DNA from: Patescibacteria group bacterium
Lineage (GTDB): Bacteria; Patescibacteriota; Microgenomatia; UBA8517
Direction of reading: 5' to 3'
Assembly (NCBI GenBank): GCA_038061225.1
Contig: JBBTZT010000003.1
Span: 184,515 to 248,514 of the forward strand
Length of the DNA: 64,000 nt
Shown: in pieces, positions 2,354 to 45,804 of the stretch
How positions within the stretch are numbered: position 1 is the stretch's first letter
How the letters are laid out: every line of letters begins with the position of its first letter
Translations under genes and position numbers: made by a program
Notes under the pieces: generated by a model
Databases searched by the model: none
The model's input: the letters and a program-made list of their open reading frames with translations, nothing else
Told to the model about the DNA's origin: nothing

Positions 2354-3487
2354 ATGAAAAATATTGCAATTGTCGTTCATAAATATCTTCCACAGCCAGA
2401 TGACGATCTGGCTTATTTTTTGAATCGAAAGAAAAATATTAATATTTTTCATATAAAACATAGTTTTTCCGATGCCAAAGATAGATGTAGTGTGCTTAGA
2501 AAATATTTGAACGGACTTCAGATCGATGAAATTAAGACTCTTGATTATAAATTTTTACCCGAAGTATTAATTTATATAAAAGAGTTTATTTTTACTGTTA
2601 AATGGTTGATTTTGACAAACAAAAAATTCGATTTGTATATAGGAATGGATGGTTTATGTACTCTTTTTGGGTTATTTTTACAAAAGTTTAGAATTTGTAA
2701 AAAAGTAGTTTATTGGAATATGGATTTTGTACCATTCAATAGATTTGAATATAAATGGAAAAATGTTTTATATAATAAAGTAAATAGTTACGCGTGTAAA
2801 AAAGCTGATGAAGTATGGGATATTTCTCCAAGAATGGAAAAGGGAAGAAAACAATATTTAGATGTATACAAAAAAGACTATAAAATGCATCGTGTTATGC
2901 CATATGGTGTTTGGACTCATCAAATTAAAACTATTTCGTATGAAAAAAGTCAGAAACATACGCTTGTTTTTATGGGTCATTTGCTAAAAAAACAAGGTGT
3001 AGATATGATTATTAAAAAAATACCAGATATTTTAATTAAAATTCCAGATTTTGAATTTAAAATAATAGGAGATGGAAATTATAAAGATCAATTAATAAGA
3101 TTAGCAGATATTCTTTCTGTTCACAAATACTGTAAATTTTTAGGAAGACTTGATGATTTTCATCTAAATAATGAAATTGCTAAAGCATCTATATCCATAG
3201 CTCCATATTCTACTAATAAGTATTCTTACACTTATTATGCTGACCCAGGTAAAATCAAAAAATACTTAGCTTGCGGAGTACCTGTATTGTTAACAAATTT
3301 ATCATGGAATACACATGAAATAGAAAAAAATGAATGCGGTTTAATCATAGGTGACAATGGTAATGATCTTGTCGATAAATTATTATATTTATTTAGACCA
3401 AAAATAAATGAAAAATTTAGAAAAAACGCTATTAAATACTCTAAAAGTTTTGATTATGAGAAAATATTTTCTGAACTAAATATATAA
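2354..3487 (+). CDS. Glycosyltransferase, GT-B fold (GT4-like); paralogous to the genes at 8912 and 10221.
   Basis: The VVYW..DF.....KW.N....K......AD.VWDISP block is shared with the ORFs at 8912..10162 and 10221..11435. C-terminal GT-B features are present. Confidence 0.55.
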   Translation: MKNIAIVVHKYLPQPDDDLAYFLNRKKNINIFHIKHSFSDAKDRCSVLRKYLNGLQIDEIKTLDYKFLPEVLIYIKEFIFTVKWLILTNKKFDLYIGMDGLCTLFGLFLQKFRICKKVVYWNMDFVPFNRFEYKWKNVLYNKVNSYACKKADEVWDISPRMEKGRKQYLDVYKKDYKMHRVMPYGVWTHQIKTISYEKSQKHTLVFMGHLLKKQGVDMIIKKIPDILIKIPDFEFKIIGDGNYKDQLIRLADILSVHKYCKFLGRLDDFHLNNEIAKASISIAPYSTNKYSYTYYADPGKIKKYLACGVPVLLTNLSWNTHEIEKNECGLIIGDNGNDLVDKLLYLFRPKINEKFRKNAIKYSKSFDYEKIFSELNI

Positions 3488-3488
3488 T

Positions 3489-4403
3489 ATGCTAAAAAAA
3501 TGGATAAAATATCTTTGTGATCCAATTGATAAAACATCGTTAAGTGTTAGTAAAATAACGAGTAGAGATGGTGAATATATAATTTCTGGCATATTAAAAA
3601 GCAGATCTGGTAATATTTATAAAATTAAAAACGGAGTACCTATTCTAATTTCTAAAAAGACTCAAGGTGTTAGTTCAGTAGAAAGTTTTGCCTATGAATG
3701 GAATACCTTTGATTTTGATTATGGCAAGAAAGGTTGGCTTAACGATATTGTGGAACCTGTGGTTGATAGTACTAAATATTTTAAAGATAAAGTTGTTATC
3801 GATTGTGGTGCTGGTTCGGGTAGACAAAGTTTATGGATAGCAGAAGCAGGAGCAAAATTTGTTTTTTCAATAGAGCTTTCCGATTCAGCGACTACAATTG
3901 TAAAAAGAGTTACAAGTAAATTTAAGAATAGAATATTTGTCATTCAGGCAGATATTGCCCATCTACCGCTTAAAAGGAATATTGCAAATATTGATGTGGC
4001 TTATTGCGTAAATGTAATTCAACATACAAAAAATCCTTTAAAAGGTACTGAAGAGATATCTAAATTATTAAATAAAAATTCAACATTTATATTTAACATA
4101 TATTTATTGAGAGGTAACAAGTTAAAAATATTAATCATTCAGTTTATTAAAAAACTTCTCTCTAGGTTGCCAAAATCAATCATTAAGAAGATATCGTACT
4201 TAATTGCAATATTTTTATATCCATTCTGGGTTAATAAACATTCTATTAAAGAATTTTGGCTCGATATATATGATCTTTTAGGGACACATAGCTATCAAAA
4301 ATTCTATTCATTGAAATACCTTGACGAATTATTGACCGAGTCAAAATTGATGATCAAAAAAACATCGTATTATTCAATGCTTTTGAAAAAATCAATTAAT
4401 TAA
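3489..4403 (+). CDS. Class I SAM-dependent methyltransferase with an N-terminal Trm112-like zinc-ribbon-like segment.
   Basis: DCGAGSGRQ matches SAM-binding motif I (GxGxG). The N-terminus, LCDPIDKTSL...IKNGVPILI, resembles Trm112/UPF0434. Confidence 0.6.
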   Translation: MLKKWIKYLCDPIDKTSLSVSKITSRDGEYIISGILKSRSGNIYKIKNGVPILISKKTQGVSSVESFAYEWNTFDFDYGKKGWLNDIVEPVVDSTKYFKDKVVIDCGAGSGRQSLWIAEAGAKFVFSIELSDSATTIVKRVTSKFKNRIFVIQADIAHLPLKRNIANIDVAYCVNVIQHTKNPLKGTEEISKLLNKNSTFIFNIYLLRGNKLKILIIQFIKKLLSRLPKSIIKKISYLIAIFLYPFWVNKHSIKEFWLDIYDLLGTHSYQKFYSLKYLDELLTESKLMIKKTSYYSMLLKKSIN

Positions 4404-42477: not shown

Positions 42478-43737
42478 ATGGACACAATGGAAAAAATTGT
42501 AGCACTAGCAAAACGCCGTGGGTTTATATTCCAAAGCAGTGAAATTTATGGAGGATACAAAGGTTTTTGGGACTATGGCCCTGCTGGAGTAGAACTCAAG
42601 AAAAATATAAAAAATGAATGGTGGAAAACCATGGTTTATGAAAGAGAAGATGTCGTCGGAATTGATGCTTCAATTGTTATGAACCCTGTTGTTTGGGAGA
42701 AATCAGGTCATTTGGCAGCTTTTACAGATCCACTTGTGGAGTGTAAAGTTTGTCACAAAAGATTTAGGGAAGATCAAAAAGACACTCATGAACATAATGA
42801 TTGGACCGAAACTAAAACATTTAATTTAATGACTGAAATTTTACTTGGAACGACTGAACCAAAGGAACTATCTTATTTAAGAGGAGAAATTACACAGGGA
42901 GTCTTTGTAAATTTCAAAAATGTAGTTGATTCCACAAGAGTAAAAATTCCATTTGGAATAGCTCAAGTTGGAAAAGCATTTAGAAACGAAGTAACTCCTG
43001 GAAATTTTACATTTAGATCAAGAGAATTTGAACAAATGGAACTTGAATATTTTGTAAAACCAAATGAAAAGACGAGCAAGAAAGTATTTGAGGATTTTAA
43101 AGAGACAAGAATGAATTGGTATAAAAATTTAGGAATGAATATCAAGAAACTTCATTTTGCAGATCATACACCTGACAAAATAGCTCACTATGCGAAATAT
43201 GCAACAGATATAGAATATGAAGCTCCATTTGGATGGAATGAAATGGAAGGAATACACCACAGAGGTGACTATGATTTAAAAAGCCATGATTTAAAATACA
43301 AAGATAACATTACAAATGAAGAATATACACCTTGGGTAATTGAAACTTCAGGAGGAGTAGACAGGGCAACTTTATTTTTCTTGATTGATTCATATACAGA
43401 AACCCCAGAGGGTAGAGTTGTTCTAAAGCTAAACCCAAAATTAGCACCATACAAAATTGCAGTGTTTCCACTTCTTGGAAATAAACCAGAATTAACAGCT
43501 AAGGCTCGGGAAGTTTATCAAGATTTAAAGAAAAGTTTTGTTGTTACTTGGGACGATCGAGGAAACATTGGCAAAAGATATGCAGCACAGGATGAAATTG
43601 GTACACCATGGTGTGTAACAGTCGATTTTGACAGTTTAAAAGATAAATCAGTAACTGTTAGAGATCGTGACACAGGCAGGCAAGAAAGAATTGCCATTGA
43701 CAAATTACAAGAATATTTTGAGAAGAGATTAAAATAA
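42478..43737 (+). CDS. glyQS: Glycine--tRNA ligase (alpha2 dimeric type).
   Basis: IVALAKRRGFIFQSSEIYGGYKGFWDYGP is the class II GlyRS signature; 419 aa. Confidence 0.9.
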   Translation: MDTMEKIVALAKRRGFIFQSSEIYGGYKGFWDYGPAGVELKKNIKNEWWKTMVYEREDVVGIDASIVMNPVVWEKSGHLAAFTDPLVECKVCHKRFREDQKDTHEHNDWTETKTFNLMTEILLGTTEPKELSYLRGEITQGVFVNFKNVVDSTRVKIPFGIAQVGKAFRNEVTPGNFTFRSREFEQMELEYFVKPNEKTSKKVFEDFKETRMNWYKNLGMNIKKLHFADHTPDKIAHYAKYATDIEYEAPFGWNEMEGIHHRGDYDLKSHDLKYKDNITNEEYTPWVIETSGGVDRATLFFLIDSYTETPEGRVVLKLNPKLAPYKIAVFPLLGNKPELTAKAREVYQDLKKSFVVTWDDRGNIGKRYAAQDEIGTPWCVTVDFDSLKDKSVTVRDRDTGRQERIAIDKLQEYFEKRLK

Positions 43738-43752
43738 ATCATGAAATCAATA

Positions 43753-43779
43753 AATAGTAATTCACTCCCGATGTGGGAT
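43753..43779. repeat. REP-like 27-nt repeat (copy 1) abutting the stop of the RAYT-like gene.
   Basis: AATAGTAATTCACTCCCGATGTGGGAT. Its core TCCC-GATGT-GGGA can form a small hairpin. Confidence 0.55.
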
Positions 43780-44451
43780 TTAATCGAAAGTTAGATGCTT
43801 AATGTTTTCTAATTCTTTTTGATGGTCTGCATTGTCTAGAACAAAATTTTTGTATAAATCTTCAGATTTAAAATTACATAAGATATCATCTTTTTTACAA
43901 AACGGAAACTTTGATTGACTTATATATTCTGGAAGTGACGACCATGAATAATTTATTAATTTATTACTATCTTTAACAATTCCAGATGAGTAAGGGTTTA
44001 GGTGAATATATCTAGATACGTGGAGCAATTGCTCTTCGCTGTCAATTCTAACAGCCTTAAATTGTCCTTGAAATAGAGGACCAATTCTCTCATTCTTTAT
44101 ATTAAAATATCTAGCATAACTGTTTTGTAAATTTGCTAGTAATTTCGAAATACCATTATCGTCATTTTGTTTTAATAGCAAATGAAAATGATTTGGCATC
44201 AAGCAATATGAAAGAATATCTGTGTGTTTTTTGTCTTTATCAAGTCTGTTCCAAATTTCTTGTCTTTGATCGCTAGCAAGTGTCATAAATTTTGAAAATT
44301 TAATTGGATAGTTAACAAAGTTATAGTATTTTAACAAAAGCAGGAATCGTCGATACTCATACTTTGATTTAAAAAGTGGACGTTTATTTACTCCACGATT
44401 AAATACATGATAGTAATAATTTTCTACAAGTGGTGAATAACGAGCAGGCAT
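43780..44451 (-). CDS. REP-associated tyrosine transposase (RAYT) / IS200-like Y1 HUH transposase.
   Basis: HUH motif in YCLMPNHFHLLL, and the catalytic-Tyr region SRYIHLNPYSSGIV, which matches YI..NPV of the TnpA_REP family. Confidence 0.65.
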   Translation of the reverse strand: MPARYSPLVENYYYHVFNRGVNKRPLFKSKYEYRRFLLLLKYYNFVNYPIKFSKFMTLASDQRQEIWNRLDKDKKHTDILSYCLMPNHFHLLLKQNDDNGISKLLANLQNSYARYFNIKNERIGPLFQGQFKAVRIDSEEQLLHVSRYIHLNPYSSGIVKDSNKLINYSWSSLPEYISQSKFPFCKKDDILCNFKSEDLYKNFVLDNADHQKELENIKHLTFD

Positions 44452-44474
44452 AATTTATTATATACCGAGGTGGC

Positions 44475-44501
44475 AATAGTAATCCACTCCCGATGTGGGA
44501 T
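44475..44501. repeat. REP-like 27-nt repeat (copy 2), on the other side of the RAYT gene in the same orientation.
   Basis: AATAGTAATCCACTCCCGATGTGGGAT, 26/27 identical to copy 1. Confidence 0.55.
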
Positions 44502-44553
44502 GCTTATTGACAAGATTAATATTAAAATTCAAAATAGATTAGATAAATAATAT

Positions 44554-45237
44554 ATGAACGTAAAAAAATTTCTTCCGATTATACTTCTTGGAGTTGGTGT
44601 TCTAATTTTAATCTTGGTGTTTGTTTTTATTAAAAATAAAAAAAGTACAGTAATAGTTGATGAAAGTGATGTTACTATTGAAGTTGCCTTCCCTGATCGT
44701 CCATTTGCCTCTTTAACTCCAACATCTGATGGGCATTATATAAACCTAAAAATAGATAAAATAAAGCTTCCTAAGGCAGTCTCCCTTGATTATGAACTAC
44801 TTTATACACTTCCAGACGGTAGAACACAGGGCGTGCCTGGTACAGTTGATTTAAAAGGAGAAACCTCATTTGAAAGAAAACTTCTTTTAGGCTCAGAGTC
44901 GTCAGGGAAATTTAGATATGATGAAGGTGTAACTGATGGCAGTCTAACTGTAAGACTTCGTGATTCTAAAGGAAAACTTTTAGCTAAGTTTTCTACAAAG
45001 TGGCATTTGCAGTCAACTGACCTTGAATTAACTTCAATTGATCAAAATTTTAGCTATGTTTTAGATAAAAAACCAAAAGGAATGTATTTTATAACCATGG
45101 AAACATTTGGCTTGCCTAGCGAAGCTTCCGTCTCAGAAGCGAAGTTGGATCCATATGGTATCTTTGCCTCAGGCACACTTCCTTCAGGTACAGCCGAAGG
45201 CTGGCAAGTATACATGAATAACATCTTCTTTAAGTAA
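44554..45237 (+). CDS. Hypothetical membrane-anchored/secreted protein.
   Basis: N-terminal signal-anchor (LPIILLGVGVLILILVFVFI); no recognised domain. Confidence 0.3.
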   Translation: MNVKKFLPIILLGVGVLILILVFVFIKNKKSTVIVDESDVTIEVAFPDRPFASLTPTSDGHYINLKIDKIKLPKAVSLDYELLYTLPDGRTQGVPGTVDLKGETSFERKLLLGSESSGKFRYDEGVTDGSLTVRLRDSKGKLLAKFSTKWHLQSTDLELTSIDQNFSYVLDKKPKGMYFITMETFGLPSEASVSEAKLDPYGIFASGTLPSGTAEGWQVYMNNIFFK

Positions 45238-45273
45238 AATTATAACCTTTCATATTGGCTGTGAAATTAGTAC

Positions 45274-45329
45274 TTGACATGCCGTGAAAGAAAATGCAAA
45301 ATGGTTAGTAATGGTGAGAAATGGAATAA
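45274..45329 (+). promoter_or_regulatory. Putative mraZ promoter with an MraZ operator of three direct repeats at 10-bp period.
   Basis: TTGACA 45274-45279, then 17 nt, then CAAAAT. From 45300 the sequence aATGGttagt aATGGtgaga aATGGaataa repeats three times at exactly 10-nt spacing, about 45 nt upstream of the mraZ ATG. Confidence 0.45.
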
Positions 45330-45375
45330 TCACCAAACTAAATAATTATGAAACTGCCCATTTCATACATAAAAT

Positions 45376-45804
45376 ATGCTATTAGGAACATATTCAGCCA
45401 AACTTGCCGAGAATCACAGGACTTCTATTCCAGCGCCATTACGAAAAGATTTAGGTCAGGAATTGGTCGTAGCCAAATGGTATGAAGAATGTTTAGTTCT
45501 AGTATCTAAACAGGCTTTAAATGCACTTTTAGAAAGAATAGTTGGAAATAATAATCTTGTTACAAATCCTGTGAGGGGTTCAGAACATTTTATTTTTACT
45601 GGGGCATATGAAATCGAATCAGACGATCAGGGACGAATTGTAATTCCTGAAAGTTTAACTAAATACGGTCATTTAAATGATGATATTTATTTTTTAGGAG
45701 TTGGTGATCGTGTTGAAATATGGAATAAAAATATTTGGGATGAAAGGCTTGAAAAGATTATAAAAGATGCGCCTAGTTATATTGACCAACTAATTAATAA
45801 ATAA
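45376..45804 (+). CDS. mraZ: Transcriptional regulator MraZ.
   Basis: N-terminus LLGTYSAKLAENHRTSIPAPLRKDLG; 142 aa; position at the head of the dcw cluster. Confidence 0.85.
   Translation: MLLGTYSAKLAENHRTSIPAPLRKDLGQELVVAKWYEECLVLVSKQALNALLERIVGNNNLVTNPVRGSEHFIFTGAYEIESDDQGRIVIPESLTKYGHLNDDIYFLGVGDRVEIWNKNIWDERLEKIIKDAPSYIDQLINK

Follow-up and report, generated by a model that had tools for sequence, protein, structure and literature searches.

A stretch of 64,000 nucleotides from a Patescibacteria group bacterium (assembly GCA_038061225.1, contig JBBTZT010000003.1, positions 184,515 to 248,514, forward strand) contains a small nuclease gene between glyS and a membrane-protein gene. This whole stretch is called the window below. 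It has a G+C content of 30.6%, and public records assign its proteins to Patescibacteria or Candidatus Woesebacteria. Over the stretch compared, it is identical to a groundwater contig of 157,794 bp (L002). The nuclease resembles the REP-associated tyrosine transposases (RAYTs), the family named for its association with repetitive extragenic palindromes (REPs), and its gene is framed by two copies of a hairpin-bearing unit. The gene and its two units, at positions 43753-44501, are referred to here as the cassette. Loci from related genomes are given L numbers. The features of the locus are listed in order along the window.

42478-43737, plus strand: glyS, encoding glycyl-tRNA synthetase (GlyRS, 419 aa) and bordering the insertion on the left; the protein shares 83-85% identity with its counterpart in genomes with an empty site.
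43696-43752, plus strand: left target copy, in which the functional 3' end of glyS (ATTGACAA through the stop codon at 43737) is followed by 15 relic nucleotides from the beginning of the membrane-protein gene, ATCATGAAATCAATA (alignment A6 with L105, L107, and L108).
43753-43779, minus strand: downstream hairpin unit, the left end of the cassette on the plus strand; 27 nt of hairpin and spacer, with the half-site gone.
43780-44451, minus strand: gene for a Y1 HUH nuclease of RAYT type (class 2, subclass 2.1-like), 223 aa, with Y14-H15, H88xH90, R147-Y148 (YIHLNP), and Y168xWSS172.
44457-44462, minus strand: putative -10 box, TATAAT, 5 nt before the ATG; no Shine-Dalgarno sequence.
44463-44501, minus strand: upstream hairpin unit, the right end of the cassette on the plus strand, ATCCCACATCGGGAGTGGATTACTATTGCCACCTCGGTA; 39 nt, 49 bits with the covariance model of the unit.
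44502-44553, plus strand: right target copy, ~45 nt left over from the end of glyS, TATTGACAA...TTCAAAATAGATTAGAT (alignment A6 and local alignments, p about 0.002; promoter scan).
44554-45237, plus strand: gene for a 227-aa membrane protein that borders the insertion on the right; in empty-site relatives, the ATG of this gene and the stop codon of glyS overlap.

The open reading frame at 43780-44451 begins with MPARYSPL and contains the motifs NHFHLLL (H88, H90) and RYIHLNP (Y148). An earlier note, made from the letters of this DNA alone, had described a 223-aa minus-strand protein with an HUH motif and a YI..NP motif and had called it RAYT-like. Both motifs are present, and the Pfam scan suggested there as a check gave a match to Y1_Tnp (PF01797) of 40.5 bits, with a cut-off of 23. 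With this score above the gathering threshold, the HUH motif, and a single catalytic tyrosine, the protein belongs to the Y1 HUH superfamily. Y14-H15, H88xH90, R147-Y148, and Y168xWSS are nearly invariant across 46 diverse relatives. Within the superfamily, a Y...NP motif distinguishes class 2 from the Y...Q motif of IS200 (PMC6006769, Table 1). The NCBIfam model REP_Tyr_transpos (NF047646) matched with 53.2 bits, below its equivalog cut-off of 80 bits, compared with 15 bits for the IS200 model.

The fold of the nuclease points in the same direction. An AlphaFold model computed from the alignment of the 46 relatives had a confidence (pLDDT) of 93. When it was compared with the PDB by Foldseek, the top match was 4ER8_A, which is Escherichia coli TnpA_REP with a REP hairpin (E 2.2e-6, template modelling score 0.71 on the target). 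The TnpA structures of IS608 and ISDra2 ranked below it. The single nuclease sequence had no match in the PDB at E<=1; a profile of the family reached known structures at E 0.01-0.03 (4ER8 at E 0.03). No TnpB or other transposon gene adjoins the nuclease gene. The RAYT-like identity is thus borne out by the Y...NP motif, by the much higher REP_Tyr_transpos score, by the 4ER8 fold, and by the lack of a nearby TnpB. The protein is a nuclease with an intact HUH/tyrosine active site and a TnpA_REP-like fold.

A finer assignment can be made from the motifs. NHFH, FQ (LFQGQFKA), YIHLNP, and YSWSS, together with the length of 223 aa, fit the signature of subclass 2.1, which is NH[YF]H, FQ, Y[IV]HLNP, and an SS tail with a median length of ~238 aa (PMC6006769). 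This filing is a motif comparison with Table 1 of that paper and not a phylogenetic placement. TnpA_Y1 subclass 2.1 corresponds to RAYT group 1 of Bertels and to most of the TIRYTs of Di Nocera (PMC6006769). The protein is therefore described here as a class-2, RAYT-type Y1 nuclease with motifs matching TnpA_Y1 subclass 2.1 (Bertels group 1). Residues 162-221 of the AlphaFold model form a short helical C-terminal tail, and no Pfam match at E<=1 was found for a C-terminal helix-turn-helix (HTH)-like domain (Bac_DnaA_C, HTH_23, HTH_28). Subgroup 2.1.2 has been described as heterogeneous for such a domain.

Close homologues number more than 7,400, nearly all of 215-230 aa, and fall into 430 clusters (50% identity, E<1e-30). 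The gene occurs once in the window, and no second homologue was present in any of ~85 loci. This low copy number, with no near-identical duplicates, is typical of RAYTs. A phage-borne origin is unlikely, as 2.9 million viral contigs gave just two distant relatives (29-34% identity).

Two repeats bracket the gene, AATAGTAATTCACTCCCGATGTGGGAT at 43753-43779 and AATAGTAATCCACTCCCGATGTGGGAT at 44475-44501. They are identical at 26 of 27 positions and lie in the same orientation, as the earlier note had stated; the end of the first lies one base ahead of the stop codon. Their 17-mer core has exactly two occurrences in the 64 kb when up to 3 mismatches are allowed. The chance expectation is 0.02, and two matches were reached in 0 of 100 shuffles. 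The full unit is longer than the repeat. It comprises 39-40 nt, in which a stem-loop is followed by ~10 nt of spacer and then by a half-site where the 5' arm and loop recur. The upstream unit is complete, with its hairpin at 44482-44501 and its half-site, a second CCACCTCGG, at 44465-44473. The downstream unit carries one G-to-A change that weakens the stem, and it scored 16.4 bits with the covariance model, only model positions 3-31 being matched. In the orthologues L007 and L010, which are 80-83% identical and occupy the same location, the full unit of 39-40 nt is found on both sides, with the gene-strand sequence ATCCCACATCGGGAGTGGATTACTATTGCCACATCGGTA. The two ends of the cassette are copies of one 39-40-nt unit that occurs rarely away from the gene.

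The TCCC-GATGT-GGGA hairpin that had been proposed for each repeat can be drawn. It is weak, at about -2.8 kcal/mol and z about -0.5, and its register is not conserved among relatives. The TCCC/GGGA register was paired at 52%, which is the level of shuffles; the conserved stem is CAC(C)/(G)GTG. A scan of positions 43000-45500 with Rfam found no known RNA family.

The units were then followed through the family. A further 80 metagenomic loci were fetched, 78 of them with both flanks, and the 150 nt upstream of each gene were compared with the 150 nt downstream by local alignment. The median score of a gene's own two flanks was 33.5, versus 16 for cross-locus controls. A matching pair was found in 72 of the 78 loci (92%), of which 39 were direct, 25 inverted, and 8 palindromic. 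The flanking repeats noticed in the window are thus specific, hairpin-bearing, and conserved among relatives. In orthologues at 67-83% identity, the same unit is found on both sides. In distant relatives with other genomic contexts (L011, L012, and L014), a G+C-rich stem-loop is again followed by a ~10-base spacer and a half-site, for example CCCACCTCGG...GACACCTCGG. The median end of the upstream hairpin is 41 nt before the ATG, and the median start of the downstream hairpin is 21 nt after the stop codon, with the downstream unit beginning 0-30 nt past the stop codon. Among relatives, the stem (5-12 bp), the loop (3-8 nt), and the sequence are all freely variable.

Covariation was assessed in an alignment of 26 upstream units chosen for having a CAC..GTG hairpin. 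The CAC(C)/(G)GTG stem was paired at 79%, and 7 of 9 pairs change on both sides, a result equalled in 0 of 500 shuffles. As judged from the alignment, the informative covariation is that of the outer pairs (C-G against A-T, T-A against C-G). The similarity of units follows the identity of the proteins (Mantel p 0.001). At 55 of 77 loci, the two ends of a gene are more alike than its upstream unit and that of the nearest relative. Therefore, the ends remain similar within a genome and diverge between genomes.

Several loci have unusual arrangements of the hairpins. In L021, the closest metagenomic relative (2440-2465 and 3173-3197), the core of the downstream hairpin, arms and loop, is the reverse complement of the upstream core, with the outer bases remaining direct. 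A flip of a palindrome core like this one could be produced by template switching at a hairpin. Loop flips of a similar kind are seen in L036, L038, L053, L081, and L100. Two inverted hairpins form one long palindrome in L047, L074, and L079, like REPIN doublets. L014 and L015 are identical (0 differences) in the nuclease gene, ppa, and the downstream genes. What distinguishes these two strains is, at the upstream hairpin, a partial tandem duplication of 22 nt (2930-2960) and, beginning within the downstream hairpin's loop, a highly diverged patch that includes an indel of 25 nt (3680-3830). L016 (CAYSAY010000006.1) carries the label uncultured Gammaproteobacteria bacterium. In genes and synteny it matches the Woesebacteria relatives, and the label is probably wrong.

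The cassette is missing from some related genomes. L105, L107, and L108 have the order RecO-(cupin)-GlyRS-membrane protein-MraZ with no nuclease gene. In these, the glyS stop codon overlaps the next ATG (ATGA), and the membrane-protein orthologues are 75-81% identical to that of the window. Because three related genomes have an empty site with overlapping genes, the 749 bp at 43753-44501 are an insertion. The features given for this block in the earlier note are real; what it missed is that the block as a whole was inserted. On the left side, the end of glyS is complete, and the 15-nt relic of the membrane-protein gene runs directly into the truncated unit at 43753, so that the inserted DNA is exactly 43753-44501. 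On the right side, five filled genomes (the window and four others) have, from the outer edge of the unit to the membrane-protein ATG, a sequence with homology to the final ~45 nt of glyS at empty sites (TATTGACAA...TTCAAAATAGATTAAGATG). This homology stands at p about 0.002 versus shuffles in four of the five.

The left sides of the filled genomes are not alike. In L021, GlyRS continues past the I-D-K codons into a new C-terminal tail, and ATTGAYAA is present on each side. The otherwise syntenic L007, L010, and L011 have another type of GlyRS (452 aa, 57-59% identical) and an extra 123-aa cupin gene, and the boundary of this GlyRS replacement relative to the window is the downstream unit. These differences show repeated rearrangement at the outer side of the downstream unit. 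Among contigs encoding the exact GlyRS, no alternative context was found within the same population. Synteny is confined to a close clade, with the neighbouring genes shared by 1 of the 80 metagenomic loci.

The signals of vertical and horizontal descent are mixed. The nuclease is conserved at least as well as the neighbouring genes. Between L021 and the window, the nuclease is 77% identical and host genes are 50-55% identical, and the neighbouring genes, at 50-57%, are the most distant of all; between L011 and the window, these pairwise values are 67% and 78-82%. Empty-site genomes fall among filled ones. These sequences can be read as showing an element that is inherited vertically, apart from gains, losses, or exchanges over evolutionary time. 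Across 43600-44900, strains L001, L004, and L005 of the source species (~98% identical overall) have no differences from the window in the cassette and its close flanks over ~0.9-1.1 kb. In the same strains, the flanks differ by 2-4%, and the membrane-protein gene and glyS carry dozens of differences. The difference-free cassette points to a sweep or an exchange in recent times or to exceptionally strong constraint.

The upstream unit can also be connected to transcription. When the family is anchored on the ATG, TTGACA is found at -35/-36 and TAnnnT at -12 to -7, with no Shine-Dalgarno signal. The start of the half-site would be the -35 box of the nuclease promoter in this family-wide geometry. 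The nuclease mRNA is probably leaderless, because the putative -10 box lies 5 nt from the ATG and there is no Shine-Dalgarno sequence. On its outer side, the upstream unit adjoins another TTGACA that derives from former glyS codons and has promoter spacing for the membrane-protein gene. At 44502-44553 in the window, TTGACA (44507-44512) and CAAAAT (44530-44535) are built of such codons (I-D-K ... Q-N). Empty-site relatives have no spacer of this kind ahead of the membrane-protein gene. Many upstream units are double-footed, with an outward TTGACA-like box ~7 nt from the stem on each side (for example L024, L025, L034, L039, L044, and the window at 44463-44515). Thus, one hairpin lies between two divergent -35 boxes. 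Going by these motifs, insertion of the cassette appears to have rewired the expression of the neighbouring gene.

The earlier note had further supposed that more copies of the repeat would define a REP family and had named occurrence at these two positions alone as what would refute this. The search of the source genome covered the 64-kb window. There, the covariance model run without filters returned the two flanking copies, and the next match (12.6 bits) had no hairpin. In a scan of one genome per species, Woesebacteria GW2011_GWB1_33_38 had three copies, two at its nuclease gene and one other. The remaining matches were two singles in unrelated taxa, within the chance estimate. Almost all matches in 372 kb of related loci flank nuclease genes, with solo units at roughly 1 per 40 kb near these genes. 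When both strands were inspected up to 6 nt from the stem, a GT[AG]G foot was found in 0 of 77 related upstream hairpins, which excludes a canonical GTAG REP. A high-copy dispersed repeat family, as is usual for RAYTs, was thus absent from what was scanned (the 64 kb and GW2011_GWB1_33_38). By the note's own test, the claim of a REP family fails within the 64 kb searched, and as far as can be tested by sequence, there does not appear to be a genome-wide family.

Some solo units are found within genes. A 39-nt unit lies in frame in uppP, in a loop that reads SHIGSGLLLSPRD, in L017 (646-691; this is GW2011_GWB1_33_38), L101 (2140-2185), and L102 (700-745). It provides 13 codons, is situated in a variable loop, and retains the potential to form a hairpin. 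Its position is the same in the three species, and the changes between them preserve or strengthen the stem (CCACCCCAGGGGTGG in L101). In most uppP orthologues, one of them 90% identical, the loop at this place is shorter and unrelated. A simple insertion of 39 nt was rejected, as the unit-bearing loop is just 3-5 residues longer than that of unit-free orthologues. Rickettsia palindromic elements (RPEs) are in-frame insertions of palindromic elements and are comparable to the uppP unit. In L049 (5176-5220), a CACC-type solo unit lies within a 258-codon open frame, ~2.2 kb from the nuclease gene. The flanking hairpins of that nuclease gene are of another type, AACCTTCAAGGTT, and the solo unit may be part of another cassette lying past the locus boundary.

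Taken together, positions 43753-44501 are best explained as a compact, single-gene, insertion sequence (IS)-like cassette of the RAYT branch, with the structure unit-gene-unit, inserted between glyS and the next gene and encoding a nuclease that acts on its own units. A probability of roughly 65% is given to this explanation. By analogy with related enzymes, the nuclease would act on its own hairpins. It would bind the unit when this is extruded as a single-stranded hairpin, as TnpA_REP and IS608 TnpA do (PMC3479197, PMC8266576). It could then cut and rejoin DNA beside the unit through a 5'-phosphotyrosine link. Such cutting and rejoining would move, copy, or homogenise the cassette and would occasionally seed solo units. 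The upstream unit would double as the -35 box of the promoter of the leaderless nuclease mRNA, and binding to it could autoregulate the gene. The outer TTGACA, from former glyS codons, would drive the neighbouring membrane-protein gene.

A number of points weigh against this explanation. The window's own hairpins are weak, with a decayed stem, and the downstream unit is truncated. The covariation of the core pairs is partly circular, because the 26 units were selected for having a CAC..GTG hairpin. Symmetric covariation would also be expected of a palindromic operator in double-stranded DNA that is bound by a dimer. Units in the source genome were counted over the 64-kb window only. The cassette is single-copy and sits at the same site in five genomes, which also fits a single old insertion that was then inherited vertically and lost in places. 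The incongruence between host genes and nuclease is one of pairwise identities.

A stronger form of the cassette reading is possible, and it is put forward only tentatively. The cassette would be an active, site-selective mobile element, intermediate between IS200 and RAYT/REP systems. It would spread horizontally in Patescibacteria into a foot-like target (ATTGACAA near the end of glyS), seed solo units, even in frame as in uppP, and bring outward promoters, with its outer boundary acting as a hotspot of DNA replacement. It would then be a REP system at its birth.

The main rival is rather unlikely but deserves some weight. It supposes that the units are purely regulatory, the upstream one an operator or promoter and the downstream one a 3' stem-loop or terminator, and that the gene has been domesticated for an unrelated function on single-stranded DNA. 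The matching of the two ends would then come from gene conversion or a shared regulator. The upstream unit's overlap with a -35 box whose distance to the ATG is fixed, the position of the downstream unit just past the stop codon, and the strong conservation of the protein are all consistent with this, and the covariation of the palindrome fits a hairpin and a dimer operator alike. However, a terminator role of the upstream hairpin was rejected because it sits between divergent genes, where a terminator is needless. The free variation of stem, loop, and sequence is also unlike an operator. Solo units within coding sequences keep their hairpin potential, and the unit-gene-unit block comes or goes as one piece. 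In addition, relatives of the enzyme bind single-stranded hairpins (4ER8; PMC3479197, PMC8266576).

It is improbable that this is a canonical RAYT/REP system, in which a domesticated and immobile gene maintains a genome-wide REP/REPIN family and the flanks are merely its gene-proximal copies. The RAYT-type fold and motifs, the single-copy gene, the solo units of some relatives, including the one in uppP, and the REPIN-like doublets would all suit such a system. Against it stand the two copies in 64 kb, the three in the related Woesebacteria genome, the lack of any GT[AG]G foot, and the missed NCBIfam equivalog cut-off, and the empty sites make the gene itself an insertion. Least probable is an ordinary IS200/IS605 insertion, a TnpA-only IS200 with left- and right-end hairpins, which would account for the ~750 bp, the single gene, the subterminal same-strand hairpins at both ends, and the empty sites, but not for Y...NP in place of Y...Q, 223 aa with a WSS tail, the 15 bits with the IS200 model, a fold nearer TnpA_REP, a single-copy gene with neither near-identical copies nor TnpB, or the inverted ends in 25 of 78 relatives.

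The cassette can be compared with known systems. REPtrons consist of a TnpA_REP/RAYT gene with flanking REPs, as for E. coli YafM (PDB 4ER8; Nunvar, 2010; Ton-Hoang, 2012, PMC3333891; Corneloup, 2021, PMC8266576). The cassette is like these in having a single-copy class-2 Y1 HUH nuclease (Y...NP) with a TnpA_REP-like fold, framed by cognate hairpins that diverge with it, and in having occasional copies elsewhere, some of them in genes. It differs in lacking the GT[AG]G guide tetranucleotide and a high-copy dispersed family. Its ends in the window are direct and not inverted, its unit has an extra half-site and a promoter, and the block is present in some relatives and absent from others.

The motif signature and the length of ~220-240 aa are shared with subclass 2.1 (Quentin, 2018, PMC6006769), RAYT group 1 (Bertels, 2017, PMC5581495), and the TIRYTs (Di Nocera, 2013, PMC3733652). 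Group 1 is the most IS-like RAYT group and has few flanking repeats in the genome (PMC5581495). TIRtrons are RAYT-like genes framed by repeats that form no big family (PMC3733652). Subclass 2.1 genes were reported to have no adjoining REP-like hairpins (PMC6006769), whereas hairpins were found here at 92% of loci. In addition, Pfam gave no match to a Bac_DnaA_C or HTH C-terminal domain in the protein, the family shows both direct and inverted layouts, and the Patescibacteria host was not reported in those surveys. The GGGGWSAS motif of TIRtrons is absent, the units reading GGAGTGGA or GGGGTGGA. TIRtrons have terminal inverted repeats; the ends in the window are direct, and inverted ends occur in 25 of the 78 relatives. 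The in-frame position of the uppP unit is like that of REPs within genes (Di Nocera, 2013); it was seen in relatives, with one found per genome.

With the IS200/IS605 elements (IS200, IS608, ISDra2), the cassette shares a ~0.7-kb single-gene structure, same-strand subterminal hairpins at both ends, the Y1 chemistry on single-stranded DNA, and absence from empty sites. An IS200 has a TnpA of ~150 aa with Y...Q, is present in near-identical multiple copies, and often carries tnpB. The cassette has none of these: its nuclease is of another class (Y...NP, 223 aa), is single-copy, and has no TnpB. Its ends are near-identical 39-nt units and not distinct left and right ends.

REPtrons, TIRtrons, and IS200 are already known, and the cassette is a variant and not a new kind of system. 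In the literature searched, no report linking RAYTs to Patescibacteria was found. What appears to be new is the presence of RAYTs in Patescibacteria, the hairpin ends in a subclass-2.1-like family, the direct and inverted layouts in one family, the half-site and promoter within the unit, and the documented filled and empty sites.

The role of RAYT nucleases in cells, and whether they move DNA, is an open question, and their largest branch (subclass 2.1 / group 1) had been described as being without cognate hairpins. The family presented here supplies hundreds of natural variants with defined 39-nt ends, both layouts, filled and empty sites, solo units, and a small, well-folded protein. The substrate, the cleavage site, and the mobility of a group-1-type enzyme thereby become directly testable. 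For the very small genomes of Patescibacteria, the family adds a widespread, previously undescribed element that is mobile or semi-domesticated.

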